From positions 1,376,001 through 1,440,000 of the forward strand of contig CAWGMQ010000004.1 in the NCBI GenBank assembly GCA_963823665.1: 64,000 nt of DNA. The letters are read 5' to 3'. Position numbers and translations under genes: made by a program. Of the stretch, positions 45,439 to 62,487 are shown piece after piece. This DNA comes from an uncultured Planctomycetota bacterium. Its GTDB lineage: Bacteria; Planctomycetota; Planctomycetia; Isosphaerales; Isosphaeraceae. Numbering within the stretch: the stretch's first letter is position 1; every line of letters starts with the position of its first letter. The notes below the pieces were generated by a model. That model was given only the letters and a program-made list of their open reading frames with translations. It made no database searches and was not told the DNA's origin.

Positions 45439-46775
45439 TCACCTCGATTTCGGCGGACGCGGCGTCATTCCCAGCAGCGTCTGCGGCGTCTGATACTGAA
45501 TCTCGCGCACATAGGCCATGGCCTGCTGGTGGTTCAGATGTCCCAGCTCGATCCGCTGGGCCAGCACGTTCGCCATCACCTTGCGCCGATCACAACCTTG
45601 GCATAAGACCACTCGACGCAATACGCGTCAGAGAAGAACCCGATCTGTTTGTTCGCCGGTACCATCTCGAGCCGCTCGTGCATCACCTGTGCAATTGTCG
45701 ACGGAAAAAAGTTATGCCACCAGTAACCGGCCAGGCTCAAGTTCGGCAGCTCGCGCACCAGCGTGCACATCGAATGGTTGGCGTGGCGAGAACCAAGGAA
45801 GCACTGAAATTTCAGCTTGGGATGCCGCCCGATCATCTCCGCGACCTGCCCGATGGTGCGCTGCGAAAGCCGGCTCGCAGTCTCGAACGGAAGCGGCTCG
45901 GCCCCGAAGCTGAACTGAAAGATCAGTTGCTCGCCGCGTGCTTCGAGCATGGTCAGGAAGAGCTCGTTCACATAAGACGCGTAACAGTCCCGCTCGGCCG
46001 GCCCCGCGTGACTGCGCCGCTTGATCGCAGCCGTCATCTCGGCATCGCTCACGATGCGATAGTCGATGTCGGTTGAGAGGTGGGTCGCCGTGGCGATGAT
46101 GCGATCGTACGGAATGCTTTCGACATAGTGCTTGACCGCCTGGTGCACGTCATCAAGGCACTTGATCGTGTGCTCGGTGGCCGGTCTCGGGCCTGCTCCG
46201 ATCGGAGCCGGGCTCTCGGGCGTTTTCCCCCAGCAACGTTCCAGCTCGTAGAGCGCTGTATCGAATTCGCCCCACTGGCAGCGCGTGAAGAATCCCCATT
46301 CGAGGGAGTATTGCAAGCGGCTGTCGTCCGATCCATTCCCGCGCCGGGCAAGCTCGGTGCCCGTGCGCTCGATACCTGCCCGGTCCAGTACCTGGGTTGC
46401 CCATGATCGATCGTCGGCCCGCTCGCGAATCATCGCATCGAGCTTCTTCCAGTTCGACTGGTCCAGCGGTGCCGACCATCCGTAGTGGTGGCGGAGAATG
46501 ATCCGCAAGCCCCAGTAAGAGGACGTGTTCTGGATGAACGGCAAGTAAGGCAGGGCCTCTTCGATCCGCGCTGTGGCTTCGGCGCGCGACGGCCAGCCGG
46601 GAAACTGGGTCAGCCGCGCTCCGTTCGGGCAGCCCGCGGCGTAGAGATCGCTGACGACCATGTGGTAGAGCAACAAGTCGTGCAGCCCTCGCGCAGCCAG
46701 CTTCCCGCCGACCAAGTGCGTGTGCACATCCAGAATCGGAATCTCAGCCAGCGACCGTTCCAGTTCGAGACTCAT
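45439..46775 (-). CDS. Uronate-isomerase-like amidohydrolase-superfamily protein; frameshift ~45590
   Basis: ILDVHTHL, LLYHMV, LAGYWWHNF, GFFSDAYCVEWSYAK / RKVMANVLAQRIELG. Confidence 0.7.
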
Positions 46776-47012: not shown

Positions 47013-47615
47013 ATGCCCGACGCAGTTGACCAAACACCACGCGACGTCTCGGCACTCTTCGATCGCTACCAAGAGCGATTGAGACGCACCGTGCGGCTCC
47101 GCCTGGACGCGCGCTTGGCTGGCATTGTTGATTCCTCGGGCGTTCTCAAACTGGCGCGTGAAGAAGCCGACCATCGCATGGCCGGGCTCGCTGAAAAATC
47201 CGCCGCCTCGTTCCTCTGGCTCCGGCAAATCGTCGGCGAAGTGCTGCTGAAAGTCCATAAAGAACGACTGGGCCCGGACTTTCGCGGCGATATCTCCCTC
47301 TACCGTGGTGCACTCCCCGAAGCCACCTCGACCTCGCTCGCCGCCCATCTTCTGGGCAAGACCGGCGGCGCCGACGACCTGGCCGCCGCCCGCGCCGAGC
47401 AAAAACTCCTGCTCCAGGAAACACTCAACGCCATGGACCCGATCGATCGTGAAGTTCTCACATTGCGCCACTGCGAACAGCTCTCCAACGACGAAGCCGC
47501 CGCCGTCCTGGAAATCTCGACCGCGCAGGCAAGCGAAGCTTACATCCGCGCCCTCAAGCGCGTGAGCCTGATCATGGCGTCATTGCCTGCTTTCAAGAGC
47601 AAGCGCCTGAACTGA
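47013..47615 (+). CDS. ECF sigma-70 factor, planctomycete kinase-associated type
   Basis: LFDRYQERLRRTVRLRLD, FLWLRQI, ATSTSLAAHLLG, MDPIDREVLTLRHCEQLSNDEAAAVL. Confidence 0.88.
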   Translation: MPDAVDQTPRDVSALFDRYQERLRRTVRLRLDARLAGIVDSSGVLKLAREEADHRMAGLAEKSAASFLWLRQIVGEVLLKVHKERLGPDFRGDISLYRGALPEATSTSLAAHLLGKTGGADDLAAARAEQKLLLQETLNAMDPIDREVLTLRHCEQLSNDEAAAVLEISTAQASEAYIRALKRVSLIMASLPAFKSKRLN

Positions 47616-47627
47616 AAAGGATCGACC

Positions 47628-50600
47628 ATGCCGGATGGTGGAACAGACCGCAATCCCGTCGAGCTCCTTTCGGAGGAATTCCTCGATCGCATCCGCCGCG
47701 GCGAGGCGGTCACACCCGAGGACTACGCCGAGCAGCACCCCGATCTGGCCGACGAGATCCTCGCGCTCTTTCCAGCTCTCTTGATGATGGAAGACCTGGG
47801 CGGCGAGACCGGCGACCTCACCGCCTCGTTCGGCTCATCCTCCCCGGCGCAATCGCCGGCGCAACCGCCGGTCATCTGGGAGAGTTCCGCTTGCTGCGCG
47901 AGGTCGGACGCGGCGGCATGGGCGTCGTGTACGAAGCCGAGCAAGAATCTCTGGGCCGCCGCGTCGCACTCAAGATCCTCCCCTCCGGTGCCCTCAGTGA
48001 CTCGAAGCAAGTCCGCCGTTTCGAGCGCGAGGCCCGCTCGGCCGCTCGGCTGCATCACACCAACATCGTCCCGGTCTTCGGCGTCGGCGAATGCGAAGGC
48101 ATTCATTTTTATGTCATGCAGTTCATCCAGGGCCAGGGTTTGAACGCCGTTCTGGATGAGCTCAAACGGCTGCGCGACGCTCGCGTTGCCACCCCCGCCC
48201 GTGCCTCGACCACCCGCCACGCCCAGGCGAGCCCAGCCGCGGCCGAGATCGCCAACTCGCTCGTCACCGGGCGATTCGCGGCCAGCACCGGCACGGCAAC
48301 CACGCCAACCGGCGAGACCCCCGGGCCCTCCTGGATCGGTCCACCCGTGCCCCCCAAAACAGCGGCCGGGCAGCTCGACGCATCCTCTCCAAGTGTCACG
48401 GCGACATCGAGCGTCTCAACCCTGTCGGAAACCGACCGCCGCTACTTCCAGGGCGTCACGAAGATCGGCCTCCAGGTCGCCGAAGCGCTCGCTTATGCCC
48501 ACGGTCAGGGAGTCCTGCATCGCGATATCAAGCCGTCGAATCTGCTGCTCGATCGAGACGGCAACGTTTGGGTTACCGACTTCGGTCTTGCCAAGGCCAC
48601 CGGGTCCGACGATCTGACGCATACCGGCGACGTGATTGGCACCGTGCGCTACATGGCCCCCGAGCGGTTCCGCGGCGAGAGCGACGCGCGATCTGATCTT
48701 TACGCACTCGGGCTCACGCTCTACGAGATGCTGGCCTTGCGCCCTGCACTTGACGAAGCCGACCACGCCAGCTTGATGCGCCAGGTGACGCAGGTCGAGC
48801 CGCCTCGACTCAAGCGATTGAACGCCCGCGTGCCACGCGACCTCGAGACAATCATTCATAAGGGCATCGCGCGAGAGCCCGCCCAGCGGTACCCCTCCTC
48901 GGCCGCGATGGCCGACGATCTGCGCCGGTTCCTGGAGGGACGCCCGATCCTGGCGCGCCAGGTTTCCCCAGCCGAGCGTGCCTATCGCTGGTGTCGCCGG
49001 AATCCGATCGTCGCCGCGCTGCTTGCGATCGTCTCGGGTCTGGTCGCCGCCGGGTTCGTCGCCGCGGTCGCCGCGGCGGTCTATTTTCGACAAACCGCAG
49101 CGAGCGAGAGCGCCGCGCGGCGCGATGCCGACCTCGCCCGCGCTCAAGCCGATCGAGCGCGCGAACAGGCCGTCGCCTCAAGCGCCGAGGCAGAAACCCG
49201 GCGGAAGGAGGCTGAAGCCAGCACGGCGGCCGCCATCCAGAAACAGCAGGAAGCCCTCGCCAGCTTCGCGCTGGCGCAATGCCGTCGACGATTCCTTCAC
49301 GAAAGTCAGTGAAACCGCACTCCTCAATGTTCCAGGCGTGCGGCCCCTTCGCCGTGACTTGCTCGAATCGGCGCTTGCATTCTACGAAGAGTTTCTCAAG
49401 CGCCGCGGCGACGACCCCAGCATCCTCGCCGATCTCGCCGCGACCCAGTTCCGCGTCGGCATGATCCTTGCCGAGCTCGGCGATGACGCCAAGGCACGCA
49501 CCACTCTTCGCAAAGCTGCTGCGCTTTACGATCAGGCCCTCGCCGCCAGGCCCGGCGATGTCGAGATGCTCGAACGCCAGGCAGAGGCCTGGCACCGGCT
49601 TGGTGACCTCGACTATCGAACCGATCCGGCAACAGCCGGCGCAGCCTACAAGAAGGCGGTCGCAATCCGCGAGCAGCTCGCCAAAGACCATCCCCAGGAC
49701 CCGCGGTTTCGGATGGCTCTCTCTCGATCTTTGAACGGCGTGGGGCTATGCGCCAGTCGAGGCCCGGCTGCACTTCCGGCCTACCGTCGCTCGCTCGAAC
49801 TGCGGTTGAAGCTCGCCGAGGAGATTCCCGGCGACGCCGATCTGCTCCACGGCTTGGGCGAGTCGTTCCACAATCTCGGCGCCCAGCTCATGACCTCCCC
49901 GGAACACGCGCTCGAGCTCTTCAAACGATCGATCGATTACTGTCAGGCGGCCCTCGACCGGCGGCCCCACGACCTCGAGTTCGCAGGGGATCTCGGAGCT
50001 TCGTATTCAAGCGCCGCGAATCTCTGCTGGTTCCAGGACCGCCGCGATGAAGCTTTGGCATTGTACGCCGATCAGGTTGCGCTTTATCGCAGGCTCGCGA
50101 GTGAAAACCCGGACGTCCCCCTTTACCGAATGCTTTTGGTACAAGGAATGTTCACGAATGCGCGATACTTGAGTCAGGCGGGCCAAACCGAGAACGCGAT
50201 GTCGCTGTTCCGCGAGCTCGCCGAATCAGTCGAATCCCAGCCCGAGTCGGCGGCAGCCACCTATCACTTTGCCATAGCGTCCCACATGCTCATCGCCGAA
50301 ATTCTCCTCGGCGACCACGCCGACTCGGATATCGATTTCTGGCCCGAACCCGCCCGTCATGAGGCAGACCTGGCCGTGGCCGACTTGAGAAAGTCGATCG
50401 ATCGCGGCTTTCACAACGCCGCCGTGCTGCGCCCTTCCCTTGAACAAAGCGCTCATGAAACGAGCCGATTTCCGCGCTCTTGTCGCCGAGATGGATGCCC
50501 AGCCAAACCGTCGGTGGCCCAGCAGCCCGCAGACACCCCGCACAAGCCACCCTTGAGTTCCCCACTAGACCACCCCGGCAGGCTCGAAGAGGATCAATTC

Positions 50601-53600
50601 CTCGGTGAGCTGACCATCGGCTTGCTCGAGAACAACCCCGGAAACCCCACAGCCGACGGAACCTCGCCACTGGAAGCGATGCTCGCGCGAGTGGAAAGCC
50701 GAATGAAGGCCGGCGCCAATCTGCCGGCCCTGGAAGCGGCCGCACGCGCGCTCCGTTCGAAGATCGGCGAACGGCTGTGGAAACTCGGCGAGCTCGCAAA
50801 GGCCGAGCGCATGTGGGATGAGAGTTTCAAACCAGCGGCTGCGCTGAAACGCGAAAAGCAGGTCCCCGAGCCCGTCGCTTCTCCGCAAGCCGCGTTCGGC
50901 GGGGCCGCAATCGTTGATCTCTACTTTGAGCGCGGTTCTCTGGGAGCAGGCCTACGCGTGGCAAGAGCGATTCAGGCCCTCGAGCCCGGCAGCCCGGGCG
51001 GCCCGCTGCTATTCGTCCGGGCTCCTCGCGCTTTACCGGGGCGACCTGGCCGCATTCAAGCAGATCGCCGCTGAAGCAATCTCGACCGCCGGGCAACCCA
51101 ATGATTCAATGGCGTTTGACGCGGTGCGCACCGCTGCGCTCGGTCCGCCGGGCACCGCTGACACCGACCAGGCCGCGGCCATCGTCAAGCGGCTATTGGC
51201 CATCCGGGCCCGCGGCTTGCCCGCCTGGTATCACGTCGTTCTCGGGCACGCCTTGCTTCGTTCCGGGGACGCAACGGGTGCCCTCACCGAGGTCGAGCCA
51301 TACAAAAACGGATTGAACGGCAAGGCCGTCATGCCTTTGATCCGCGCCGCGCCGGCCGATCCGACGTCGCCCGACGCTGGCTCGCCGCCCTCGACCGCGA
51401 CCTCGAAGACCAGGTTCACGAAGCTACGGATGCCTACGGCGCTCTCCGCGCGCCACGCTACTGGGGCGCCGATGTCCTTCGCGCCGATCTGCTTCGCCGG
51501 GAGGCCTACGCAGCGCTCGGTGAAAAGGCCCCCGAGCTACAGTCCCTTCGCCTCCTTCGCGCCGACTCGCTCCACCGCCTCGGCAAGATGAAGGAAGCCG
51601 AGATCGAATTCGATGCAGCCGTCGCCGGGGCGCCCGACCAGGTTGCTGCACTGCTCAAGCGAGCTCACACGCTCGAGAAGCTCGGCCTGCGCAATCGTGC
51701 CGACGACGATCTCGCACGTGCCTCGCAGGTCGACCAGAACGACCCGCGGCCCTGGGTCCTGCGCGGAAAGCTCCTCGCCGGCCGCGGCCTGGGAAACGCA
51801 GCCGACGAGGCGTATGCTCATGCCCTTGCGCTATCTGCAAATCGCTTGGATCCCTTTATCGAGGCCGGCTGGTGGATTGCCGGGCCCTTTCCGCCCGATA
51901 TGAGAATCTCCCAGGGGGTCGAGGACGATCCTGACCCCTCCCGGCCGATTTCCGGCGCCAACCTCGAGACCCTCGAATGGCGTTCGGTTTCCGCCAAGCG
52001 CAATCGCCTGGTGAACCTGGGCTTCATTCACGACCAGCCCAATTCATCCGTTTATGCGCTCACGCACATACCCTCGGATCGCGAGCGCACCATCATCATA
52101 TTCTTTGGCGGCGGCCGGACCGTTCGCATCTGGCTCAACGGGCGTATCGTGTTCGAGCCCGACTTGCCCAACGTCTATCATCAAGGCACCGAGTACTCCG
52201 TCCCGGTCGCGCTCAAGCCCGGCCGCAACACGCTGCTGGTGCGTGTGAGCGATCCCTCGAGCAGTCACTGGCTGCGATTGCGTACCGACGATTACGAGCT
52301 CGATCGCGCGTGGCTCTCCGCAGACTTCGGTCGCTTCGACGAAGCGGCTGATCTGTTCGACGCCGCCGGGCGTCGCGGGCAGCTTTACCAGTCGTTCCCC
52401 ATGGCTCGCAAGGTCCAGTTCCTGGCCGGGCTCGGCGACCGCAAGCGCTACCTCGAGTCGGCCGCCCTCTTGGCCGATTGGGACGGACCCTCGGCGATCG
52501 ACCCAGGTTCGACCGCGCTGGCGCTCGAGCTCATTCCCAACGATCTGATCTCCCCGGATCGCTTGATCGAACTGGCCCGGCAGGCGGCAGGCACAGCATC
52601 GGCGGGCAGGCTGCAGCACGACGTCGTCGGCCTGGCTCTCTACCGCGCGGGTCGCTATCGCGAGGCCCTCGATTACTTGCAAGCCCATCGAGGCAAGGAC
52701 GAGAAGCCCCGTCCCGTCGAAGGAATGGCCTTGTGGCACCTGGAAAACAGAGCGACGCGCGCGAAATCCTCGCTGAGCTCGATAAAGGTTTCGAGAAATG
52801 GGCCGGCCCGGGCGAAGGCGGCCACATAACCACATGGTGGAACTGGTCAGCGCTCGGCACGATGTACTTGTCCGTGCGCCGCGAAGCCCACGAGCTCATT
52901 GACGGCCACGCCCTCGACGATCAGCGGGTGCTCGCGAAAATCCGCGCTGGCATCGATAACTTACTCGACCAGCGCGACTCGCCCACCTGGGCTTTCGACG
53001 TGGTCGTCCGGCTCGATCCACAGAATGTCCCACTTCGCACCGCACGCTTCGGCCGGCTGCTCGAAATCGGCAGGGAGCCCGAAGCCGAGCCGTTCCTCGC
53101 CACAATGGTGAAGAATAAGGCGGACAAAATCGGCGCGTGGATCGAGCGCGGCATGTTACTGGCACGTGCCGGGCTGGCCGACCGTGCTGCGGCCGATTTT
53201 GCTGCTGCGCTTGACGTGGTCCCGCGCAATCCGATCATCTACGGCCCGCGTGCATCGATCTGTGCGACGCTGGCCACCGAGCCGGCGGCCTACGACCGGC
53301 TTCTCGCCCTCCGCGGGCACGATCCCGTTCTCTGGTACGTGTGCGCCTGTGAATCGGTCAGACGAAAAGACTGGAAGCCGGCCGTTGCCGACTTCATGCG
53401 TGGCGGCGAGCCGTCGGTGCCGAACGAGTTTGCATTCACATACGGGGCATCACTCCTTCTTGCAGGAGATCAGTCGGCCTTCGCGCGTTATGTCGCACGG
53501 CAAGCCGAGCTGCTGAACTCCTTGAACAATCCCGCAGCCCCTTATGTGCTGGCGAGAATCGCTGGGCTTTCGAAAGTGGGCGTGATGCCGTCAAAACAGC

Positions 53601-54013
53601 TTGTGGAATTGGCTGACTCCGCGGCCGCGAAGGCAAGCCCCGCGACCGCGTGGCATCGGCACGTCCAGGCCCTGGCTGCCTTCCGTGGTGGTGACCTGGC
53701 TCGAGCCGAGCAACTGGCTGACGAATCAAGTCGCCTTGCCTGGCTACACTCGCAGGGTCTCAATGACGTGCTGCTCGGTCTCATCAATCGGAGCCAAGGC
53801 AAAACGGCTCTCGCCCGCGCTCGACTCGACCATGCCTCGAGGACGCTCGGCCGCGCTCGCCCGGGCAGTGCGGCCAGCACAGCCGCGAACGGCAGAGTGA
53901 TCTTGCTCGACTGGCTGGAATTCCAGGTGCTGGGCCGCGAGCTCGAGCAAGCCCTCTTCGACCAAGCATTCCCGGCGGATCCGTTCACACGTTCTCTAAA
54001 GTCCAAAATCTAA
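47628..54013 (+). CDS. Giant Ser/Thr protein kinase with TPR repeats and a beta-sandwich domain (~2100 aa; about 7 frameshifts)
   Basis: EVGRGGMGVVY, VALK, HRDIKPSN, DFGLAK, GTVRYMAPE, then TPR-like helices, WWIAGPF..VRIWLNG..LKPGRNTLLVRV, C-terminal FPADPF. Confidence 0.85.
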
Positions 54014-54651
54014 AATTGGCACAGCCATTGGCGCATCGCCGCCGGATCCTCTCCAAACATCAATGACCCCGGCACAATCCAATCCCCGCCCGCTTCGGCG
54101 ATCTGCGGCACGGTATTCCGCCGAATCCCTCCATCAAGTTGGATCTCGACCTCGGCGTCGTGCGCGTCAATCGCCGCCCTCGCCGCCCGGATCTTCTCGA
54201 AGATCTCGGGTTGCATGGTCGTCCCTTTCGTCCCCATCGGCGTCCCCACGATCGTGACCTGATCGATCAGATTCCAGTAGGGATCGAGCACGCTCACCGG
54301 CTCGGTCACCAGCAGCGAGATGGCCACGAGCTTTCCCAGGTCCTTCACCTTCTTGATCGCCACCGCCGGATCTTTGAGCGAGTCAAAACAAAATATCACG
54401 CCGTCGGCGCCAGCCTCGGCAAATGGCTCGACCCACGCCAAAGGCTCCGTGGTCATCAAATGCACCTCAAATGGTTTGGCCGTATGCTTGCGCAGCGCCT
54501 TCACCAAGTCAGGAAAAAACAACATGCTCGGCACGTAATGCCCGTCGGCAACGTCCAGATGGAACCGTTCCGTATACTCGTCAACCCGCCGGATCTCCGC
54601 GCCCAGGTTCGAAAGATCCGCCGACCACAATGATGCAGAACACTTCAACAT
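54010..54651 (-). CDS. rpe: Ribulose-phosphate 3-epimerase family protein
   Basis: SASLWSAD, HLDVADGHYVP, EVHLM, LDGGI, VPGS. Confidence 0.88.
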   Translation of the reverse strand: MLKCSASLWSADLSNLGAEIRRVDEYTERFHLDVADGHYVPSMLFFPDLVKALRKHTAKPFEVHLMTTEPLAWVEPFAEAGADGVIFCFDSLKDPAVAIKKVKDLGKLVAISLLVTEPVSVLDPYWNLIDQVTIVGTPMGTKGTTMQPEIFEKIRAARAAIDAHDAEVEIQLDGGIRRNTVPQIAEAGGDWIVPGSLMFGEDPAAMRQWLCQF

Positions 54652-54682
54652 AGAACACCCTCACTGGATGATGCATCGACCG

Positions 54683-55504
54683 TCAGGCGCGCTCGTCCAC
54701 CCGAAACCGCCTGAGCACAAAGCCATCGATGGCCTTCTTCACATCCGCCGCATGCCGGTCCACACTCACCGATTTCGGCGTGACCTCACAGAATTCGCAT
54801 CCTGGTATCAACCCGGCCAACGTCTCAGCCAGCTCCCACGGATGAATCGGATCGCGCCGGTTTCCCAGCACCAGCGTCGGGACCTTGATGGTCTTGTAGC
54901 GCGCCGGGTCAGGGCAGGGGGTATCGACAACCAGCCGTGACAGCCTGGCGGCGCACTCTTCGGCTCTCGGCTGTTCGAACTGGCCGATCAACGATTTGGC
55001 GCAATCCGGCGAATCACGCTCCATCGCAGCGTATTGCTCTGTGCGGTGAAATTGTTCGAGGCCCTCCTTCGCGCCCACCGTGCGCAGCAGCTCGGCAATC
55101 GTCGTGAACAGCCACACGTTCTCCGGCAGCGGGTGGTCAATCCACGCGGGTCGAGAAAGCACCAGTCCCAGCACGCGCTCCGGATGCCGCAGCGCCAGGT
55201 TCACTGAGGCCGCTGCACCCAGCGAAATTCCACCGATCACGGCGCGCTCAATCTGAACATGATCGAGGAGCGCCACGAGGTCATCAGCCAGGCACTCGAT
55301 CGTGAGCTTCGTCTCGTCACCGAGCGGGCGGGTCTCTCCGTGACCACGAAAATCCATTGAGATCAATCGCACGCCGGGGGCCGGCACGTATACTCCGACC
55401 GCCGCAATAAGGTCACCACCCAAGCCGTGCTGAAAAACAAAGGGTAAACCCACGCCGGCGTCGCGGTATTTGAAATTCAGGCCGTCACGATGGAGGACCG
55501 GCAT
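54683..55504 (-). CDS. Alpha/beta hydrolase
   Basis: FQHGLGG, DFRGHG, nucleophile elbow GISLG, VPTLVLG..DPIHP. Confidence 0.9.
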   Translation of the reverse strand: MPVLHRDGLNFKYRDAGVGLPFVFQHGLGGDLIAAVGVYVPAPGVRLISMDFRGHGETRPLGDETKLTIECLADDLVALLDHVQIERAVIGGISLGAAASVNLALRHPERVLGLVLSRPAWIDHPLPENVWLFTTIAELLRTVGAKEGLEQFHRTEQYAAMERDSPDCAKSLIGQFEQPRAEECAARLSRLVVDTPCPDPARYKTIKVPTLVLGNRRDPIHPWELAETLAGLIPGCEFCEVTPKSVSVDRHAADVKKAIDGFVLRRFRVDERA

Positions 55505-56486
55505 GTGGCGCACTCTCCTTCAGGATCGGTTTCAATATCTCCCGCAAGAATAGAACTCGACGCTCCACGTCCGCCTCCTCCAAGCCGTGAATCACGACGG
55601 CGCCGCGATAGCCAATTCTGTTCAGTCGGACGAAGTAAGGGTAATAAAAATGAAATGAAGGCTCGTTAAGCAGTGCCTTGCTCGGCAGCTTTGCCACCGT
55701 GTCGCTGAATTTGCTCATCTCCCCCTGCGAAGCAGCTTCGATAAGAGCACGAACCGACTTGCTGGCTCGAGCACGTTCCGCCGTCTCCTTCATCTCTGCA
55801 AGAGAACGATGATCGGCCTCATCAAGGTGCGGCTCTTTCGCATGAGCCAATACAATACTGGGGCCAAGCCAATCGAACACTTCGTCGAGGATCGCGGTGA
55901 ATAGGCCCATTTCGCCAGGCCGAAGCAAATTCGCCGGATCGATCACCACCTTCAACCACCGCGAATCAATCTCATCCAGCAGCCGGCGAGCCCTCATCAC
56001 CGAGCTGACGACATTGTTGATCTCCGGCTCAAAGGCCAGCGTCACTTCATGCCGGTCCGCAATCGCCACCGCCGCGCGCATCGTCTCGACCAGGCGTTCC
56101 CACGTACTCTTCCGCGCGTTCTCCGGATGCCACTTCCACATGTCATGTGGATCCATCGATCCGGTGCAAAGCGTGATGATTCGCGTGTCGAGCCAGCGGC
56201 AGGCTTGGGCGAGCACCTCAAGCCGGCGCAGGTTATTCGCCAGCCGTCCGCCGTTCGAATCAACCATGTTGAACGTGCCCGAGATCGCCGCCATTGTGAT
56301 CCCGCGCTCGTGCAGCGTCTGGGCGATCCACACGCACGAGCCTTCGTCGAGCTTATCCGGCAGCGTGGCCAGCCCCATGCACGACATGTTGAACTGAACT
56401 TGCGTCAATCCGTGAGAAGCGACCGCGTCCAGCGTCTGTTCGAGCGTCGGCCGCGGAAACGTCTTGGCGAAAATCCCTAGCTCCAT
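55485..56486 (-). CDS. Sugar phosphate isomerase/epimerase (xylose isomerase-like TIM barrel)
   Basis: LGIFAKTF, SGTFNM, TLCTG, FEPEINNV, DPANL, AHAK. Confidence 0.85.
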   Translation of the reverse strand: MELGIFAKTFPRPTLEQTLDAVASHGLTQVQFNMSCMGLATLPDKLDEGSCVWIAQTLHERGITMAAISGTFNMVDSNGGRLANNLRRLEVLAQACRWLDTRIITLCTGSMDPHDMWKWHPENARKSTWERLVETMRAAVAIADRHEVTLAFEPEINNVVSSVMRARRLLDEIDSRWLKVVIDPANLLRPGEMGLFTAILDEVFDWLGPSIVLAHAKEPHLDEADHRSLAEMKETAERARASKSVRALIEAASQGEMSKFSDTVAKLPSKALLNEPSFHFYYPYFVRLNRIGYRGAVVIHGLEEADVERRVLFLREILKPILKESAPHAGPPS

Positions 56487-57563
56487 CAGACACCTCCGCT
56501 CAATCCGGCGAGCTCAACCCTCTCGCCGGTTTCCACCGAGCGCGCGATCGCCACCATCGCCTGCACCGCGGCCAGGCCGTCGTCCAGGCTGGCGCCCTCC
56601 TGCGGCGCACCGCGCAAAATCGGTCTCGGCAAAAGCTTCGATTTGCAGCTTGTAGGTATAGGCGTCTTCACCCAGCACGCGATGAAACTGTCGATCGCTC
56701 GCCCGGAAGCATTCGACATCGCTCGACTTGTGAAACCACGGCAGATACACGCGGCCCGAAACACTCCCATTCTCGCCGAAGACCTGAAAGCCTTCTTGAA
56801 AGTCGCCCTTGATCGGAATTTGCAAATCAAGATGCCCGAGCGATCCATCTTCAAAATCGACGTCGATGAACCAGCAGTAGCAATCGAACCGCTCGAGCAG
56901 GCGCGCGCGGACGGCCGCGATCGGCCCGCCCAGGCACCGCGCTGTATCGACGAGATGGCTGCCGTGCGTGAGGAGGTAATAGCGGCGGCGATCGGACTTC
57001 GGGTTCCCCTCCGGACGCAACGCCTTGGCGCTTGTGAACGGGATCGGCTGGAGATTATCGGTCATGGTGTAACGGTACGCCGAATCGTAGTACCAGGATT
57101 TCAGCGCGATGCGCTGGCCCATTTCCTCGGCGATGAACTTGCGGGCGAACGTGATTCCCGGGTCAAACCGCCGGTTGTTGCCCACCTGCACACTAACTCC
57201 GGCCGCGGCCGCCTGATCGCGCAGCTCGCGGCACGACTCGATCGTGGTGCCCAGCGGTTTCTCGACCAGTACGTGCTTGCCGGCCTGGATCGCCTTCTGC
57301 GCCGCGGGAACGTGAAACTGGTCGGCGATTGCGATGATCACGGCCTTGACCTTCGGGTCCGCGAGCATCGCGTCGTAGTTCGAATACGCGACCTTCGGCT
57401 GATGAACCTCGGCCATTCGCTCGCGCAGATCATCGGCGAGGTCGCAGATGGCGTAAAGCTCGGCGCTCTTGGCCTTGCGGCAGGCGTCGAAGTGAGCGAA
57501 CTGCGCAATGGGCCCGCATCCGAGCACGCCGATCGAGACGCGGTCATCATCCTTGACAATCAT
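56486..57563 (-). CDS. Gfo/Idh/MocA NAD(P)-dependent oxidoreductase; frameshift ~56621
   Basis: GVLGCGPIA, HVLVEKP, GNNRRFDP, HGSHLVD. C-terminus ASLDDGLAAVQAMVAIARS lies in the second frame. Confidence 0.9.
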
Positions 57564-58988
57564 GCGATCTTCCCCGGATACCGCTGCCGGAGCGCCTCGG
57601 AAAGCGCGGCCAGTTTCTTGCGCTGGGCGACGGCCGCCAGAGCGGCCAGATGCTCCTCCATTGCGATACCTTTCAGTTCGCCCGATTGATGAATTTCAAT
57701 CGCCTGAATCAGCGCTTCGAGTCCGATTCGCGGGTCGGCCTTGCCGTCTTTGCCTTTGATGGAGTTAATCGCCGAGCCGGCGAGGAAGAGCACGTTTTGC
57801 GCGATTCCCCGTTGATTCCAGATCTTCGAGGTTGAGGATGATATTGCCCTGGTCGAGCGCACCGGCGCGGGTGATCATGGTGGGGTTGATTCCCTTGATC
57901 GGCCGCGTGAGCGCCGCCTCCGAAGCATGCCACTCTGCTCCATAGGGGCGAATGAACGGCGAGCCGGGCCGTAGCGGGGCCGTCTGGCGGAAGTCGATGC
58001 CGTCGAGCCGGGCCAGCAAGTCAATCACCTCGCGCCAGATGCTTCGCGTCTTGACGCCGATGCCGGCGTTATGGCCGTAGATCGCCGGCGGATTCTTGAG
58101 CGTGCTGGTCGCTTCGCGGACCATCCTGACGGTCCCGCCCGCGTAGGTCTCACTGAACATCACACCGGAAGCGCCGGCTTCAACGACCGCCAGCACCAGC
58201 TCGACGATCTGTTCGGGGCCCGCGGTGACATGAGGCGAGTACACCAGCCCCAGCCCCCGGCGCGATTCGCGTACCCGCTCGATCGCCGCGATGGCGCGTT
58301 TGGTTCGCTCTTGGACCGGCGAATAATCGAGGTCGGGGTAGAGGTCTTCGTCTTCCTTGATGAACATCAAGAGGGGGCTGCCGGCGACCTCGCCCACCAG
58401 GCGTTCGACGTCCTCCGGCGTGATTCCGGCCGTTGGCTTTAGTATCGTGCCGAACGCGGGCTGGTCGAGGGCGAACCCGGTTTTCTTGCGGATGTTGATC
58501 GGCCCATAAGCCGGCCCGGGGAACCCGGCGAGCACGTCGTCGGGAATCTGGATCGAGATCAGCCGGGCGTCTTGATTCTCGTAGACGTCGAACATGACGG
58601 CGCCGGCGATCGTGTGCAGGATGTCGGTGGACGTGAGCCGCCCGTTCGGATGCCGCATCATCTTGAGCGGAAACGCTACGTGCAGCAGCCCGATCCTTCC
58701 AGACGCGTCAAACGCGTCGACGCCCGCCTGCTGAGCAGAGCATTGCGCCAGCAGCGACCCCGGCAGCGGGTTCTTGACGCCGCTGGTCGCATGGTAGCTG
58801 ATCTCCTCGATCGCGTGCTCGAGCGTTCCCGTCCGGAAATGGAAATAGTATGTGGCGACAAGATGATCCGGAACAGTTGGCGCAGGCCGTTCGCCCAGCC
58901 GGTCTGCGACCACCTTCCGCAAGACTTCCTCGCGAGCGTCGAAATCATCGCGTAGCAGATCGATCGTCGACGAATTCAAAAATGCCAT
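57560..58988 (-). CDS. Form IV RuBisCO-like protein (RLP); frameshift in the C4 run ~57808
   Basis: VATYY, FPGPAYG, GTILKP, FIKEDE (K201/D203/E204), YGHNAG, ARLDGID, LFLAGSAI. Confidence 0.88.
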
Positions 58989-59060: not shown

Positions 59061-59654
59061 TCACGCCTTCCCCGGGTGCTCGTCGGAGAAACTGACCCTG
59101 GCGTAGATGTCACGCAACGGTAGCGAGCAGTTGATTGAAACAATCTTGAGCGTGCCGTCGAGATCATCCAGCGCGGAAAATACCCAATCATCGCCCTGGC
59201 GGAGATAACGCCCGACCAGAACCTGGCTTTGGTCGATGAGAACATATTCTTTCAGAGATGGCAGCCGGCGGTAGTGCGCGAATTTCGCCCCACGGTCGTA
59301 CGACTCAGTTGTCGGCGAAAGCACCTCAACGATCACGGTGGGATTCAGAAGCGTATCCAATTCGTCATCCTGAAACTCGGGCTCGCCGCAGACAACGATG
59401 ACGTCCGGGTACGCGTACAGCCCGGTCGAACTCACGCAGACTCGCAGATCGCTGATGAAAGCTTCAGATGGACGATTCTCGAGCCGATCGCTGATCTTGT
59501 AGTAAAAATTGCCAGCGATTCGGTTATGCTCGCGACTCGCGCCCGACATCGCCGTGATGTATCCGTCAAGGTACTCGCTCTTGAACGCGGCTTTCCGCTC
59601 CGCGGCGAGGTACTGTTCCGGAGTAAAGCGCGTTCTCAGCGCGGCTGACGCCAT
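59061..59654 (-). CDS. Uma2 (DUF820) family endonuclease-fold protein
   Basis: EYLDG, MSGASREHN, YPDVIVVC, VEVLSPTTESYDRGAKF, EYVLIDQ. Confidence 0.92.
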   Translation of the reverse strand: MASAALRTRFTPEQYLAAERKAAFKSEYLDGYITAMSGASREHNRIAGNFYYKISDRLENRPSEAFISDLRVCVSSTGLYAYPDVIVVCGEPEFQDDELDTLLNPTVIVEVLSPTTESYDRGAKFAHYRRLPSLKEYVLIDQSQVLVGRYLRQGDDWVFSALDDLDGTLKIVSINCSLPLRDIYARVSFSDEHPGKA

Positions 59655-59727: not shown

Positions 59728-62487
59728 TTACCGCAGCTTTTTCTTTTCCCGAGTACCGTCAAAGTCCACAAACTGCGTCTCGATCTTCAAAAAAACACAC
59801 CCGTTGCTGGCCAAGTGCGTCGAAATCCGAACCCGCCCGTCGGCGTCGCTACGAGCGCTGTTCCCTCCCGTCCATCGGTACTCGCAGAGCTTCTGCACCC
59901 GCTCAACATCCGTCCGCGGATAAGCCGCCGGCGCAAGTAGCGTCTTGATCGCATCCTTCGCCAGGTCGCGCAAACCTGCGTCTTGATCCTGCCCCACCAG
60001 CTTCAGAATGGCGCCCGCCACCTCCTGGCGACCAGTCGCATCCAGCTTCGTCACCGCCTCGAGCGCCGCGCGCTTCTCGGCACGATCGCCCCCTTCAAGT
60101 GCGCGATGCAAAGACGCCACCCGCGCCGGGTCACTCGCGCCTGCTCCAGCCGGTCGATCACGCAGCGCCCGCGCCTCGGCAAACGGCGTGTTCTCATTCT
60201 TGCTGAAATGAAAGGCGAGCACGCGATAGAGCCGATTCGCCTCAACCCCGTCCAGCTCGAGCGTCACATCAAATGACGCCTCCGAGCGCGACTGAGTATC
60301 CTCCGGTTGATGTGTGTAAAGAACGGCGCGAATCACACCGCTATCATCCCGCGACGCAAAGCCGCCGATCCGATGCCCGCCGATCTGCTGCGGCTCCAGC
60401 ACCCAGTATCGATCTCCTAGATCCGAGAGCAGCCCCAGCACATGAAAGATCGGCATCGGCACAGTCACCGTCCGATCGCCGCGGCCGTCGCCATCGTCAT
60501 CGACGTGCACCACGCGCGAAACCGCGTTGATCCCCGCGAAATTCGCCGGCGGCGGCCATACCGTCAAAATCGTTTCACCGTAGGCGTAGCGTCGGTCCCT
60601 GGCCGCCTGCAATAGCTGACGATGTACCACGTCGAGGCACCAAGTGGGGAAAAAACCATTGCCCAGGTACGAATCGATTGCCGCCTCGTCCGGCGGCGGC
60701 AGCCAGTCCGGACAGGCCTCATGGGAGTCGACCCAGAGGTTCCTGTAGTATTCTGGATCAATCCCAAGCGCGATCTCCTTGGCTTTGATCAGCTTCGCCA
60801 CCATCATCTCCGACTTGTTGTACGCGTGGATCGAGATAAAATCACATGGACTTCCTTTACCTCCATGCTGCCGGCATAGCGTCTCGACGCGCCGCGACCG
60901 CCTACCTTCTAGCCGCTTGTCCGCAAACGCCGCATTGAGAGGCAGGGCGCCTGGCGCGGCCGCGTTCGGCGAGCAATGCGCAAGAAACTCCTTGAGCCTC
61001 AAGTTCACCCCAAAGATCGCGCCCAGCTCGAGCCCACCGATTGAAACCTTTCGCGAGTCGAACCCACGATCTTCATACGCCCGCAGCACGGCATCGGTCG
61101 AATAATCGTAAAACGTTTGCAGCTCGTTCCAGTCCGCCCGCCAGAACATCCGCCCGAGATCCGGCTCGTTGAAGATGCTCCATGGAAAGTCGAGCGCGTC
61201 GGCGCCATAGCGGGCAATGACGTGGCCGGCCAGCGCGCGGACGACTTCGTGCCACTGGGCGTAATCCTTCACGGTCGTCCAGCTTCGTCCATCGCGCGAA
61301 AGATCGCCGGCCGCATCCGCCAGGTTCGCGAGCACCCGCCGGCTGCGCCGATGCGCGAAGTCCCACTCCTTGTCGAGCCGGCCCCAGTAATAGCACGCCG
61401 TGCCGTACGGCTTGAACTTTCGCAGATAGCAACCTCCAGGCGCGAAGAGCCCGGGGGCGTCCGAGTCTTCCCACCGGGGCAGGGGCCCTTCGTAGGCGAT
61501 TTTCCACCCACCGGGCGGATTCGCGACCGATTCAACGGTTACTGTCCTCGCCGCGCTGTCCGCGGAAACCACCTTCGTCCGAGCGTCATGAACTCCGTCC
61601 GCGATCAGAACTTCGTCGCCAGGATGGTAATCGTCTCCCACAGGCCGCCCGTCGGGAATGTTGTATTTCTCGTGGCCAAGGAAGTCTTCAACGCGAAGCA
61701 CCAGTCTCTTGTCGCGCGGCTTGATTGCCGCGATGCGCCTGGTCTCGCGCTCGCGCACGATGTTCGGCAGATTGACCGGGAGGAATGCATTCGGCCGATA
61801 CTCTGTGCCGGTCATCCAGAAATCGCGCTGATAGCTCCAGGCCTTCGGGTGCTGCTTGCGAGCCTCGTCCATCAAATCGAAAGTCGGCTCATAGTTCGCG
61901 GCCTGCGTGCAAAAGACGACGTTGCAAATGCCCGAAAAGAACCTCCCATGCCATTGCACCGACTCGCATTGCAGATCAAGCTCGAACTTGACCGGGTGAA
62001 CCGCCGGTGCTGCCTCGGTGGTGAAGCTCCACTCGTGCGTGGCGGCGAGCGCCGGTTGGCCCGCGCTCGCCGTGACTATCACGCTGTAGGTCTTGTTTGC
62101 CACCAATGGTCCGTCAGGCTCGACGTAAACGGCCAGTGACTTCTTGCCCTGAAGGTCCTGCTTCGGGCGCAACCAACCGCGACAGCCCTCGGCAAAATGT
62201 CCGGCCGATCGAATCAATTCGACCCGAGCGCCGCCTTCCGGCTGAAGGCTGACCGAGACAGACGCAGGCTGAACGTCGGCCGGTTTGGCTCCCTGCGCAG
62301 CATCGAGCTCGAAGTAAATACTCGTTCGCAATGGCACGTTGCGGGCACCGTGCGCCGGGCGCGGGCTGCCGTGCGGGTCAGGCAGCCGCTCGATCAGCTT
62401 GACTTGCTGTGCGAAGCCAGGAATGGATGCAGCGGCCGCGAACGCAAGCCCGATCAGGCCGGCAAACGAACGACGTTGTGTAATCAT
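59728..62487 (-). CDS. Secreted protein with Ig-like domain and GH-A clan (GH39-like) catalytic domain
   Basis: Signal peptide, Big_5-like (VPLRTSIYF...WSFTT), WSIFNEPD, DFISIHAY, VDSHEA. Confidence 0.55.
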   Translation of the reverse strand: MITQRRSFAGLIGLAFAAAASIPGFAQQVKLIERLPDPHGSPRPAHGARNVPLRTSIYFELDAAQGAKPADVQPASVSVSLQPEGGARVELIRSAGHFAEGCRGWLRPKQDLQGKKSLAVYVEPDGPLVANKTYSVIVTASAGQPALAATHEWSFTTEAAPAVHPVKFELDLQCESVQWHGRFFSGICNVVFCTQAANYEPTFDLMDEARKQHPKAWSYQRDFWMTGTEYRPNAFLPVNLPNIVRERETRRIAAIKPRDKRLVLRVEDFLGHEKYNIPDGRPVGDDYHPGDEVLIADGVHDARTKVVSADSAARTVTVESVANPPGGWKIAYEGPLPRWEDSDAPGLFAPGGCYLRKFKPYGTACYYWGRLDKEWDFAHRRSRRVLANLADAAGDLSRDGRSWTTVKDYAQWHEVVRALAGHVIARYGADALDFPWSIFNEPDLGRMFWRADWNELQTFYDYSTDAVLRAYEDRGFDSRKVSIGGLELGAIFGVNLRLKEFLAHCSPNAAAPGALPLNAAFADKRLEGRRSRRVETLCRQHGGKGSPCDFISIHAYNKSEMMVAKLIKAKEIALGIDPEYYRNLWVDSHEACPDWLPPPDEAAIDSYLGNGFFPTWCLDVVHRQLLQAARDRRYAYGETILTVWPPPANFAGINAVSRVVHVDDDGDGRGDRTVTVPMPIFHVLGLLSDLGDRYWVLEPQQIGGHRIGGFASRDDSGVIRAVLYTHQPEDTQSRSEASFDVTLELDGVEANRLYRVLAFHFSKNENTPFAEARALRDRPAGAGASDPARVASLHRALEGGDRAEKRAALEAVTKLDATGRQEVAGAILKLVGQDQDAGLRDLAKDAIKTLLAPAAYPRTDVERVQKLCEYRWTGGNSARSDADGRVRISTHLASNGCVFLKIETQFVDFDGTREKKKLR

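Follow-up and report, generated by a model that had tools for sequence, protein, structure and literature searches.

The window, i.e., the whole stretch of 64,000 nt that was analyzed, contains a gene cluster led by a RuBisCO-like protein (RLP) and interrupted by an insertion (Table 1). Its host is a soil planctomycete whose genome is 91.9% complete. Five genes, all on the minus strand, were found where an earlier sequence-only reading had placed them, with Pfam matches for all five, and the four junctions it described were confirmed: an ATGA overlap between RLP and the Gfo/Idh/MocA dehydrogenase (Gfo; 57560-57563), a TGATG overlap between Gfo and the TIM barrel protein (TIM; 56484-56488), a 20-bp overlap between TIM and the alpha/beta hydrolase (ABH; 55485-55504) and a 31-bp gap between ABH and the Rpe paralogue (54652-54682). 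That reading overlooked a sixth gene, encoding a uronate isomerase-like (UxaC-like) protein, which is parted from the Rpe gene and displaced by the insertion of ~7 kb.

Table 1. Cluster genes and the intervening insertion in the window.
Feature	Position	Strand	Match or remark
RLP	57560..58988	-	PF00016, 34.6 bits vs cut-off 30.1
Gfo/Idh/MocA NAD(P) dehydrogenase	56486..57563	-	PF01408
AP_endonuc_2 TIM barrel	55485..56486	-	PF01261
Alpha/beta hydrolase (ABH)	54683..55504	-	PF00561
Rpe-family epimerase paralogue	54010..54651	-	PF00834
UxaC-like amidohydrolase, BH0493/4I6V type	45439..46775	-	sixth cluster gene
Insertion: ECF sigma factor and frameshift-broken Ser/Thr kinase-TPR gene	47013..54013	+	not of the pathway
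ECF sigma factor inside the insertion	47013..47615	+	

The RLP gene has one extra base near 57803-57811 and the Gfo gene one near 56621-56623. Neither base occurred in any of four aligned relatives or in run X1 short-read contigs, which differed elsewhere by 0 and 1 letters, so these two frameshifts are assembly errors. The UxaC-like gene is one base short near 45586 compared with four of four relatives. All six genes showed dN/dS of 0.07-0.24 against their nearest relatives, showing that they are under purifying selection.

Conservation of the cluster and its kinases

We found the five genes in identical order and on the same strand in 25 of 80 GTDB loci, representing at least five phyla (24 of the 63 loci with at least 4.5 kb of downstream sequence); of 80 metagenome loci, 17 had the same arrangement. 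This recurrence indicates that the set is not a chance arrangement and bears out the idea that it is conserved elsewhere. A PfkB kinase gene follows in 13 of the 25 GTDB loci and a UxaC-like gene is present in 15; the common form of the cluster comprises seven genes, RLP-Gfo-TIM-ABH-Rpe-PfkB-UxaC-like. The cluster is a real, widely conserved sugar-breakdown gene set led by a RuBisCO relative that does not fix CO2, and the window holds a six-gene version of it that has lost the kinase.

The most constant partner of RLP was the UxaC-like protein, with orthologues in 27 of 48 genomes that have RLP and 0 of 24 that lack it; for Gfo (31 candidates scored per genome) the counts were 21/48 and 0/24. 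Neither orthologue was detected in 17 of the 48 RLP-positive genomes, seven of which are listed as 92-99% complete, so RLP can persist without these putative feeder enzymes, and Gfo had no match in any of 28 deep-subclade loci. UxaC-like and PfkB genes accompany RLP in the main clade and in the 45-50%-identical subclades L143, L146 and L210, and the two adjoin each other in nine genomes where the pair lies apart from RLP. Other recurring partners were GatZ-like, MtlD-like, PMI-type cupin, class I/II aldolase and GmhA-like SIS proteins, all families that act on ketose phosphates; in deep subclades, the presence of GmhA-like, GatZ-like and aldolase proteins agrees more readily with ketose-phosphate products of six or seven carbons than with a pentulose. 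Piecemeal loss of neighbors is common in Isosphaeraceae.

The sequence-only reading treated the lack of a kinase as the defining trait of the cluster. At the locus this observation stood: queries for PfkB, ROK, APH, FGGY and DUF1537 kinases had no match in the window, DUF1537 was also not found in seven loci of its lineage and matched the genome only in a fragment below cut-off, and phosphoribulokinase (PRK; PF00485) had no match in the genome (the control was positive in 11 of 14). Similarly, a PfkB orthologue was detected in 0 of 9 genomes of the lineage. As a defining trait it failed, however, as PfkB is present in 13 of 18 five-gene GTDB loci outside the lineage, and ROK, APH and FGGY kinases adjoin the same genes in other genomes. 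The PfkB-free lineage is nested in the tree among PfkB-bearing Isosphaeraceae; its loss of PfkB is secondary and purely local. Five more five-gene GTDB loci had no adjacent PfkB, and three of these five genomes had none at E 1e-20. The host genome has 10 PfkB-family matches, which are possible substitutes. The closest solved relative of the relatives' PfkB was YihV (E 6e-37), a sulfofructose kinase that we take to be a ketose C1 kinase. Assignment as YihV proper was rejected, since its DVRW motif, which presumably holds the sulfonate-binding Arg, aligned with DHYD.

The RuBisCO-like protein and its partner enzymes

Intact RLP orthologues have 475 aa, and the clade is confirmed in 249 stretches of GTDB species genomes. 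It is isolated in the tree (support 100), about equally distant from known RLPs and from RuBisCO and outside every characterized clade, as the novelty claimed for it implied. RLP was 16-24% identical to solved RuBisCO and RLP structures and reached none of the NCBIfam cut-offs, scoring far below every one. For an intact orthologue of 93% identity, the AlphaFold2 model (pLDDT 94.6) matched RLPs and RuBisCOs with Z 34-38 over 349-411 residues, i.e., it has the RuBisCO large-subunit fold. The Mg/carbamate core K184/K211/D213/E214/H306 (RuBisCO K175/K201/D203/E204/H294, in what we take to be spinach numbering, mapped through HMMER alignments to form III RuBisCO) was invariant in 99 of 99 clade sequences. 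By predicted fold and metal-carbamate core, RLP is a form IV member of the RuBisCO superfamily.

The substrate pocket is rebuilt in this clade. Of 94 main-clade sequences, 94 have H/L, A, T, N, Q and A where RuBisCO has E60, N123, K177, R295, H327 and S379, whose equivalents are missing in the window's own RLP too; the changes at the distal-phosphate residues R295, H327 and S379 extend to 99 of 99 clade sequences. Loss of E60, N123, K177, R295 and H327 indicates that RLP is not a carboxylase, and carboxylating forms I-III were rejected with a best family score of 76 vs 497 bits. The proximal-phosphate site has changed as well, with T65 lost, Ser in place of G404 and, in 50 of 94, Ala in place of G381. 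The clade has also gained two invariant Arg, R334 and R374, whose aligned positions may point outward from the active site. Pfam scores of the homologues barely clear the cut-off (33-48 vs 30.1 bits) and JGI labels many of them "ribulose-bisphosphate carboxylase large chain", so they can be missed or miscounted as carbon-fixation genes.

None of the cluster's enzymes passed a function-level cut-off, and we therefore infer every substrate. The best characterized matches of Gfo, far below cut-off, were inositol 2-dehydrogenases (IolG), and its many invariant Arg, Lys and Ser residues are possible anion binders. The closest solved relative of TIM, which has a ~50-aa insertion relative to its ~280-aa orthologues, was the L-ribulose-5-P 3-epimerase UlaE (E 1.2e-8). 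UlaE presumably uses two catalytic Glu, with Asp and His as metal ligands; TIM has the E, DxxN and HxK motifs, and the first Glu, Asp and His are kept, but His replaces the second Glu in 18 of 18 sequences, and UlaE proper was rejected on this basis and by score (27-47 vs 317 bits). In ABH, the nucleophile Ser (GGISLG) and Asp were invariant (32/32), but an invariant Lys-Ser occupies the usual position of the catalytic His, which makes the lactone/ester hydrolysis step of the earlier reading doubtful; another His lies three residues past the Asp. The Rpe paralogue keeps the H/D/H/D metal ligands and the DGG/GS phosphate-site motifs, with two pocket Met changed to Ala and Gly; a housekeeping Rpe is encoded elsewhere in the genome. 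The UxaC-like protein (profile matches 4I6V, BH0493 and 1J5S) has an invariant HxH metal motif, YH, WW and catalytic Asp (17/17), scored 37.5 bits against a uronate isomerase family cut-off of 387 and has Tyr and Met in place of Arg357 and Tyr50 of BH0493, which we assume to be functional positions.

Candidate pathways

A dedicated pathway built on a non-carboxylating RLP is very probable, and its substrate is fairly likely to be a phosphorylated keto-sugar or keto-acid. A new reaction is probably concealed in RLP, a member of an uncharacterized branch. As earlier proposed, catabolism of a sugar or sugar acid that ends in an Rpe-type step is still the best reading. As to the specific route, we tentatively favor, at less than even chances, a carbonyl shift and decarboxylation by RLP that turn a keto-hexonate phosphate into a pentulose 5-phosphate, to be used by the Rpe paralogue; a kinase would act in trans. 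The cluster would funnel a hexuronate or a compound of the cyclitol type to a 5-keto-hexonate (keturonate), either by the UxaC-like isomerase from an aldo-uronate or by oxidation with Gfo, cleavage of a C-C bond by the atypical hydrolase and epimerization by the UlaE/IolO-like TIM; an IolO-type enzyme is described as a 5-keto-L-gluconate 4-epimerase in the available text of PMC12632266. The kinase (PfkB in most genomes, an unlinked enzyme in this lineage) would phosphorylate the carbon beside the keto group, so that RLP would receive a substrate of the ketose-1-phosphate type, as characterized RLPs do. RLP would then move the carbonyl by two carbons via Mg-enediolates, as in the DeepYkr RLP 1,3-isomerase that yields pentulose 5-phosphates (PMC5893883, in part), and decarboxylate the resulting beta-keto acid, as reported for 3-oxo-isoapionate-4-P in the accessible part of PMC6302742. 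The Rpe paralogue would pass the pentulose 5-phosphate into the pentose phosphate pathway.

The association of UxaC-like and Gfo genes with RLP, the recurrent UxaC-like/PfkB pair, the ketose-phosphate partner families and the YihV-like kinase are consistent with the favored route, as are the invariant Mg/carbamate core, the replaced distal-phosphate residues with the two new Arg, the precedents for 1,3-isomerization, decarboxylation and 4-epimerization and the low dN/dS. Genomes with RLP and neither feeder, the six-/seven-carbon fit of deep-subclade partners, the PfkB-free lineage, the altered proximal-phosphate site, the possible outward orientation of R334 and R374, the UxaC-like substitutions and scores below every function-level cut-off argue against it. 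A reaction not yet described in the RuBisCO superfamily, in which a keto-hexonate phosphate undergoes carbonyl migration by two carbons and, in tandem, decarboxylation, is rather unlikely as the activity of the clade. If true, it would give Planctomycetota, Verrucomicrobiota, Chloroflexota and other phyla a third route for uronates or cyclitols that leads directly to pentose phosphates, and its reverse reaction would be an Mg-carbamate carboxylation of a pentulose monophosphate.

RLP may instead be a pure carbonyl-migrating isomerase that takes the 1-phosphate of a neutral ketose, be it a pentulose, hexulose or heptulose, to a distal-phosphate ketose without decarboxylation, the product being finished in different genomes by Rpe-like, GatZ-like, SIS, cupin, MtlD-like or aldolase enzymes. 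This possibility, to which we assign a lowish probability, fits the deep subclades that pair RLP with GmhA-like SIS, class II aldolase, GatZ-like, PMI-type cupin and MtlD-like proteins, has the DeepYkr precedent and would explain the RLP-alone genomes because general kinases make ketose 1-phosphates, but alone it leaves the constancy of the UxaC-family partner unexplained. An ascorbate-like route, in which Gfo oxidizes an aldonate at C3, a kinase phosphorylates the far end, RLP is a 3-keto-aldonate-phosphate decarboxylase analogous to UlaD and the UlaE- and Rpe-like enzymes set stereochemistry, is unlikely: the kinship of TIM with UlaE, the possible anion binders of Gfo and the K177/N123 loss and Q327 that RLP has in common with the decarboxylase OiaX agree with it, but the second Glu of UlaE is replaced, the canonical distal-phosphate site is lost and Gfo is missing from many RLP genomes.

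The kinase-independent route of the sequence-only reading, with a sugar acid that is unphosphorylated or already phosphorylated on arrival, would accommodate the PfkB-free lineage with its six genes still under purifying selection, the five other loci and the changes in both phosphate sites. We regard it as improbable, as the residue changes are common to all 99 clade members, including kinase-bearing ones, the Rpe paralogue retains its phosphate motifs, and PfkB-family proteins in the genome could substitute, with other kinases adjoining these genes elsewhere. A role of RLP in MTA or 5'-deoxyadenosine salvage or a DXP shunt, with the sugar genes secondary, is very unlikely. RLP-alone genomes exist, MtnB was above cut-off in none of 39 genomes, a polyprenyl synthase precedes RLP in four loci and mtnA is present elsewhere in the genome; but mtnA (40/42 genomes) and a class II aldolase-like match (37/39) occur independently of RLP, dxs is found in this genome and nearly all PVC genomes tested (57/76 overall), and no mtn family recurs among annotated neighbor clusters. 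Decay of the cluster, or a CO2-fixing RuBisCO, as suggested by three frameshifts in the window, piecemeal neighbor loss and the JGI names, is largely refuted by the near-identical reads without two of the frameshifts, the low dN/dS, the missing RuBisCO residues and the lack of a PRK match.

Comparison with known systems

Few RLPs have been characterized, each with a different enediolate outcome, according to the available portion of PMC10176493. The conserved enzyme set narrows the substrate search for a large, distant clade and, by limiting the substrates, makes the function of form IV proteins directly testable for a new branch. The cluster may also bring to light a sugar-acid route that has been missing for the abundant degraders of soils and sediments.

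OiaX, the 3-oxo-isoapionate-4-phosphate decarboxylase of D-apiose catabolism, has the RuBisCO fold and Mg/carbamate core in common with RLP, and annotated OiaX proteins likewise have no K177 or N123 and have Q at H327, in agreement with the favored route; both also occur in sugar-acid clusters with a kinase and downstream ketose-phosphate isomerases. In contrast, OiaX is ~25-28% identical to RLP, keeps T65 and R295, and has a DUF1537 kinase and TPI/RpiB-like isomerases as partners rather than PfkB, UxaC-like, Gfo, TIM, ABH and Rpe. RLP was rejected as OiaX, as it scored 56-62 bits vs the NF042437 cut-off of 700, annotated OiaX fell outside its clade in the tree and no DUF1537 kinase was linked.

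The DeepYkr RLP, a 5-methylthioribulose-1-P 1,3-isomerase belonging to the MTA-isoprenoid shunt that operates in R. rubrum and R. palustris, is a precedent for converting a ketose 1-phosphate to pentulose 5-phosphates (PMC5893883, in part). Some subclades have a cupin neighbor, as with DeepYkr, here PMI-C-terminal-like. However, no solved RLP was >24% identical to the RLP model (both R. palustris structures were at 18-21%; the tree was built without an authenticated DeepYkr reference), mtn neighbors were not found, and the occurrence of RLP did not complement that of dxs, mtnA or mtnB. MtnW, the DK-MTP-1-P enolase (IV-YkrW), tied with others for the best structural match (Z 37-38, rmsd 2.6-2.9 A, 372-388 residues) at 20-23% identity, with no mtnB/mtnX/mtnD context seen; RLP was rejected as MtnW by NF007095 (46.7 vs 409 bits) and TIGR03332 (21.3 vs 513.6 bits), with no MtnB above cut-off in the 39 genomes.

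The L-ascorbate (UlaD/UlaE/UlaF) and inositol (IolG/E/D/B/C/J; Thermotoga IolO) routes are matched here by the UlaE-like TIM barrel and the IolG-like Gfo. We take the cluster to follow the same UlaD/Iol logic of dehydrogenase, AP_endonuc_2 enzyme, hydrolase, isomerase, PfkB kinase and final C-C cleavage, with the atypical ABH and the UxaC-family protein presumably in the places of IolD/IolN and IolB, and RLP and the Rpe paralogue presumably in that of UlaD or IolJ.

Gene set of the window and its frameshifts

Five ORFs were found on the minus strand where the sequence-only reading had placed them, encoding in order a RuBisCO-like protein (RLP; PF00016), a Gfo/Idh/MocA dehydrogenase (Gfo; PF01408), an AP_endonuc_2 TIM barrel (PF01261), an alpha/beta hydrolase (PF00561) and an Rpe paralogue (PF00834), and all four gene junctions agreed with that reading to the base. 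The nearest named relatives of the window are Isosphaeraceae/Isosphaerales (Planctomycetota) genomes. The RLP and Gfo genes each contained one surplus base, which was absent from all four aligned relatives. Contigs from a soil short-read run (X1) showed a single-base gap at each surplus base, with no other letter differing over the RLP stretch and one over the Gfo stretch. Because both the relatives and these near-identical contigs lack the surplus bases, the two frameshifts are assembly errors. A further assembly error is an indel at 50936 in the neighbouring Ser/Thr kinase gene, which was also absent from a short-read contig. Relative to the nearest relatives, dN/dS was 0.07–0.14 for the RLP, 0.08–0.13 for Gfo, 0.15–0.19 for the hydrolase, 0.07–0.08 for Rpe (one further pair was saturated), 0.24 for the TIM gene (a single pair) and 0.08–0.13 for a sixth member, a uronate-isomerase-like (UxaC-like) gene. 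In close relatives the latter lies directly after Rpe, or after unrelated inserts. A promoter and terminator scan stayed at chance level (2 versus 3.0 and 16 versus 14.1).

Coordinates of features in the window and in loci of relatives (L handles)
Feature	Coordinates	Strand	Remark
GH39-like/Ig-like protein	59728-62487	-	919 aa, probably secreted; two genes upstream of RLP
Uma2-family gene	59061-59654	-	adjoins RLP upstream
RLP	58988-57560	-	
X1 contig, RLP	57631-57893		
X1 contig, Gfo	56583-56777		
Insertion in TIM gene	~55650-55830	-	~50 aa, versus ~280-aa orthologues
ECF sigma factor and Ser/Thr kinase-TPR gene	47013-54013	+	inserted in cluster; several frameshifted pieces
UxaC-like gene	46775-45439	-	cut off from Rpe by opposite-strand insert
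PolX/PHP gene	43687-45417	-	after cluster
Tandem TIM-gene duplicates, nearest relative	L039:12502-14643		64% and 82% identical to window's
Two-RLP locus, Chloroflexia	L080:5003-14266		
Gfo-TIM pair without adjacent RLP	L139:5725-10798		followed by ROK kinase
Deepest RLPs	L193:6819-9096; L202:423-3140		39% identity, Lys at K177; then GatZ/KbaZ-like gene

Among the flanking genes, the GH39-like/Ig-like protein also occurs near the RLP in 3 of 18 relatives' loci; it could supply the pathway's sugar, the association being confined to the window's lineage. The Uma2-family gene keeps its position in the nearest relative only, and genes of this family are common planctomycete filler. Within one sub-branch of Isosphaeraceae the PolX/PHP gene always comes after the cluster, and it persists where the other genes have been lost, an adjacency that probably reflects synteny rather than function.

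An isolated RLP clade and its active site

The 120 best RLP homologues listed were mostly 475 aa long and 74–93% identical, and a search of 50%-identity representatives returned a handful of full-length proteins (67, 50, 45, 39, 39 and 37%), the next being at about 30%. Relatives are encoded in 249 stretches of GTDB species genomes, the best 80 of which belong to Planctomycetota, Verrucomicrobiota, Chloroflexota, Hydrogenedentota, Armatimonadota, Acidobacteriota, Omnitrophota and a few others. PF00016 was present in 13 of 121 genomes of a phylum sample; this count runs over matches of any clade and carries no weight in the conclusions. A plasmid collection held no clade member, all matches being below 60% and those listed at 25–28%. 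The placement of the RLP was checked by FastTree on 117 rows with SH-like support, and 99 clade members sat on one long stem (support 100) apart from annotated OiaX (the 3-oxo-isoapionate-4-phosphate decarboxylase of apiose catabolism), one DUF1537-linked RLP and 16 other outgroup rows; the outgroup branches are long, and authenticated DeepYkr, OiaT and hamamelose RLPs were not among the rows. Titles of three loci (L086, Akkermansia muciniphila; L095, Acidimicrobiia; L100, Bifidobacterium) conflict with their neighbours in this tree, and their labels or bins may be wrong. All six NCBIfam RuBisCO/RLP models scored far below cut-off (best 76 versus 497 bits; OiaX 56 versus 700; the methionine-salvage enolase MtnW 47 versus 409). 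The AlphaFold2 model of P0001, an intact orthologue (pLDDT 94.6), matched RLPs and form I and form III RuBisCOs near-equally (Z 34–38, identity 16–24%).

Residues were mapped via alignments to form III RuBisCO and are given in spinach numbering. K175, K201, D203, E204 and H294 were invariant in all 99 clade sequences. Replacements were found at E60 (His; Leu in 4 of 94), N123 (Ala), R295 (Asn), H327 (Gln), S379 (Ala), G404 (Ser) and K177 (Thr; Cys or Lys in deep members), and two new Arg, R334 and R374 in P0001 numbering, are invariant. With the core retained and these RuBisCO residues lost, formation of a Mg-enediolate is probably within the protein's reach, and carboxylation of RuBP probably is not. 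No PRK match was found in the window's genome.

Conserved neighbourhood and loss of the kinase

Conservation of the gene set was checked as well: Gfo, TIM, hydrolase and Rpe orthologues followed the RLP in the window's order at 25 of 80 GTDB loci (24 when only the 63 loci with 4.5 kb or more of downstream sequence are counted). Of these 25, 13 had a PfkB kinase and 15 a UxaC-like gene inside the fetched flank; among 80 metagenome loci, 17 had the five genes, 11 of them with PfkB and 11 with the UxaC-like gene. Since PfkB and UxaC-like genes so often extend five-gene loci, the usual form of the cluster is seven genes, intact examples being L073, L059 and L095. As side observations, the Chloroflexia locus L080 holds a clade RLP, a divergently oriented RLP from a different clade, a xylose-isomerase-like gene, an FGGY kinase, a class I aldolase and GH127; the Gfo-TIM pair of L139 lies opposite a PhyH dioxygenase, DUF2961 and a sugar ABC transporter; and UroD/MtaA-fold proteins occur near the RLP or UxaC-like gene in L061, L068, L075, L087, L094, L096 and L143 (8 of 80 GTDB loci).

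The sequence-only reading had called the operon kinase-less. No PfkB orthologue was indeed found in the window's genome (best matches 27–30%), which has ten PfkB-family matches, a ribokinase among them, nor in the 8 other genomes of its lineage, all of which keep Gfo, hydrolase and UxaC-like genes. However, the tree places this lineage (support 100) inside a group of Isosphaeraceae in which the earlier branches (L050, L051, L059 and L073) carry PfkB, so the loss is secondary and does not describe the cluster at large. Among five other five-gene GTDB loci without adjacent PfkB, two genomes had a 40%-identical PfkB elsewhere and three had none. In L139, L140 and L080, kinases of the ROK, APH and FGGY families lie next to genes of the cluster.

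Across 72 genomes, which include non-independent kin, 48 with the RLP clade were compared with 24 without it. The UxaC-like gene was present in 27/48 versus 0/24, Gfo in 21/48 versus 0/24 (31 candidates scored per genome), the hydrolase in 21/48 versus 1/24, and PfkB (E 1e-30) in 21/48 versus 4/24, just one of those four exceeding 42% identity. PfkB adjoins the UxaC-like gene in 9 genomes in which the pair is distant from the RLP. Both Gfo and UxaC-like orthologues were missing from 17 of the 48 RLP genomes, and Isosphaeraceae present all stages of loss (RLP-Rpe-PolX, RLP-hydrolase-PolX, RLP-PolX and hydrolase-PolX); these observations count against a fixed pathway. Isolates that carry the RLP alone include Tundrisphaera lichenicola P12 and Tautonia sociabilis GM2012. 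In 28 metagenome loci with RLPs less than 55% identical to P0001, no match to Gfo, TIM, hydrolase or Rpe was found, and the partners were an MtlD-like dehydrogenase (11), a PMI-type cupin (10), UxaC-like (5) and PfkB (3). A search with one query found no MtlD-like partner in the window's genome. Some deep loci carry a GmhA-like SIS protein, E1-alpha/beta/E2 subunits, class I/II aldolases or a GatZ-like protein. L143, L161, L173, L210 and L220 combine the RLP with GmhA-like SIS and with pyruvate-dehydrogenase-like subunits (E1-alpha/beta plus E2 or lipoyl); a glycyl radical enzyme joins them in L173. The idea that the SIS partner is a 3-hexulose-6-P isomerase was rejected, as it scores GmhA-like and HxlB reached just 37 bits, in 1 of 4.

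Partner enzymes and a candidate route

The best characterized matches of Gfo were inositol 2-dehydrogenases (101 versus a 355-bit cut-off). The best solved relative of the TIM barrel was UlaE (L-ribulose-5-P 3-epimerase), whose second Glu is an invariant His here; the insertion in the window's TIM gene is real because a short-read contig without differences spans it. Of the lactone/ester hydrolysis proposed earlier, the alpha/beta hydrolase itself stood, with Ser and Asp kept, but Lys-Ser occupies the usual His position (32 sequences), which makes a plain lactonase doubtful. The cluster Rpe keeps metal ligands and phosphate motifs and has two pocket Met replaced; the housekeeping Rpe elsewhere in the genome scores 262 bits. 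In the UxaC-like protein the HxH, YH and WW motifs and the catalytic Asp are retained, but two residues of the uronate isomerase BH0493, Arg357 and Tyr50, are not. The closest match to the PfkB of relatives is sulfofructose kinase (YihV), which brought up a sulfosugar substrate; this idea was rejected because the sulfonate-binding Arg of the DVRW motif is absent.

Two partners stay with the RLP even among deeply diverged members, namely an aldose/uronate-to-ketose isomerase family and the PfkB kinase, and the downstream partners belong to families handling ketoses phosphorylated at the distal end. These would be linked most simply by an RLP taking a ketose-1-phosphate-type substrate to a distal-phosphate ketose, as DeepYkr RLPs do by 1,3-isomerization (PMC5893883). 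With a keturonate phosphate, the same shift would leave the carbonyl in the beta position relative to the carboxylate, and the loss of distal-phosphate residues from the RLP fits a carboxylate at that end of the substrate. Decarboxylation by the RLP would then yield a pentulose 5-phosphate, to be handed to Rpe; apiose RLPs provide a precedent (PMC6302742). Gfo, hydrolase and TIM barrel may form an optional feeder, analogous to routes through 5-keto-L-gluconate and an IolO-type epimerase (PMC12632266). We tentatively infer a carbonyl shift plus decarboxylation of a keturonate phosphate. A pure isomerase, performing the DeepYkr-type shift without decarboxylation, is conceivable and rather doubtful; an ascorbate-like decarboxylase is unlikely. 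A kinase-independent route appears more unlikely still, and a role in MTA salvage is highly improbable, as mtnA and an aldolase-like match do not follow RLP presence across genomes. A Dxs bypass, an idea that arose from a polyprenyl synthase upstream of the RLP in 4 loci and from PMC10663253, was also rejected: the window's genome has dxs, as do 57 of the 76 genomes examined, the misses being mostly Chloroflexota.

The window contributes a derived, lineage-wide loss of PfkB, a sixth gene displaced from its usual place, proof from reads that two of the frameshifts are artefacts, and a partner pattern across RLP subclades. Only a handful of RLPs are characterized (PMC10176493), and neither the clade nor the cluster was described in the open-licence papers searched; supplements of RuBisCO surveys may list these sequences as unlabelled form IV. 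Both OiaX and the clade RLP lack K177 and N123 and have Gln at 327, whereas OiaX alone keeps T65 and R295. The cluster resembles known RLP-dependent sugar(-phosphate) routes and is a member of none among those testable.
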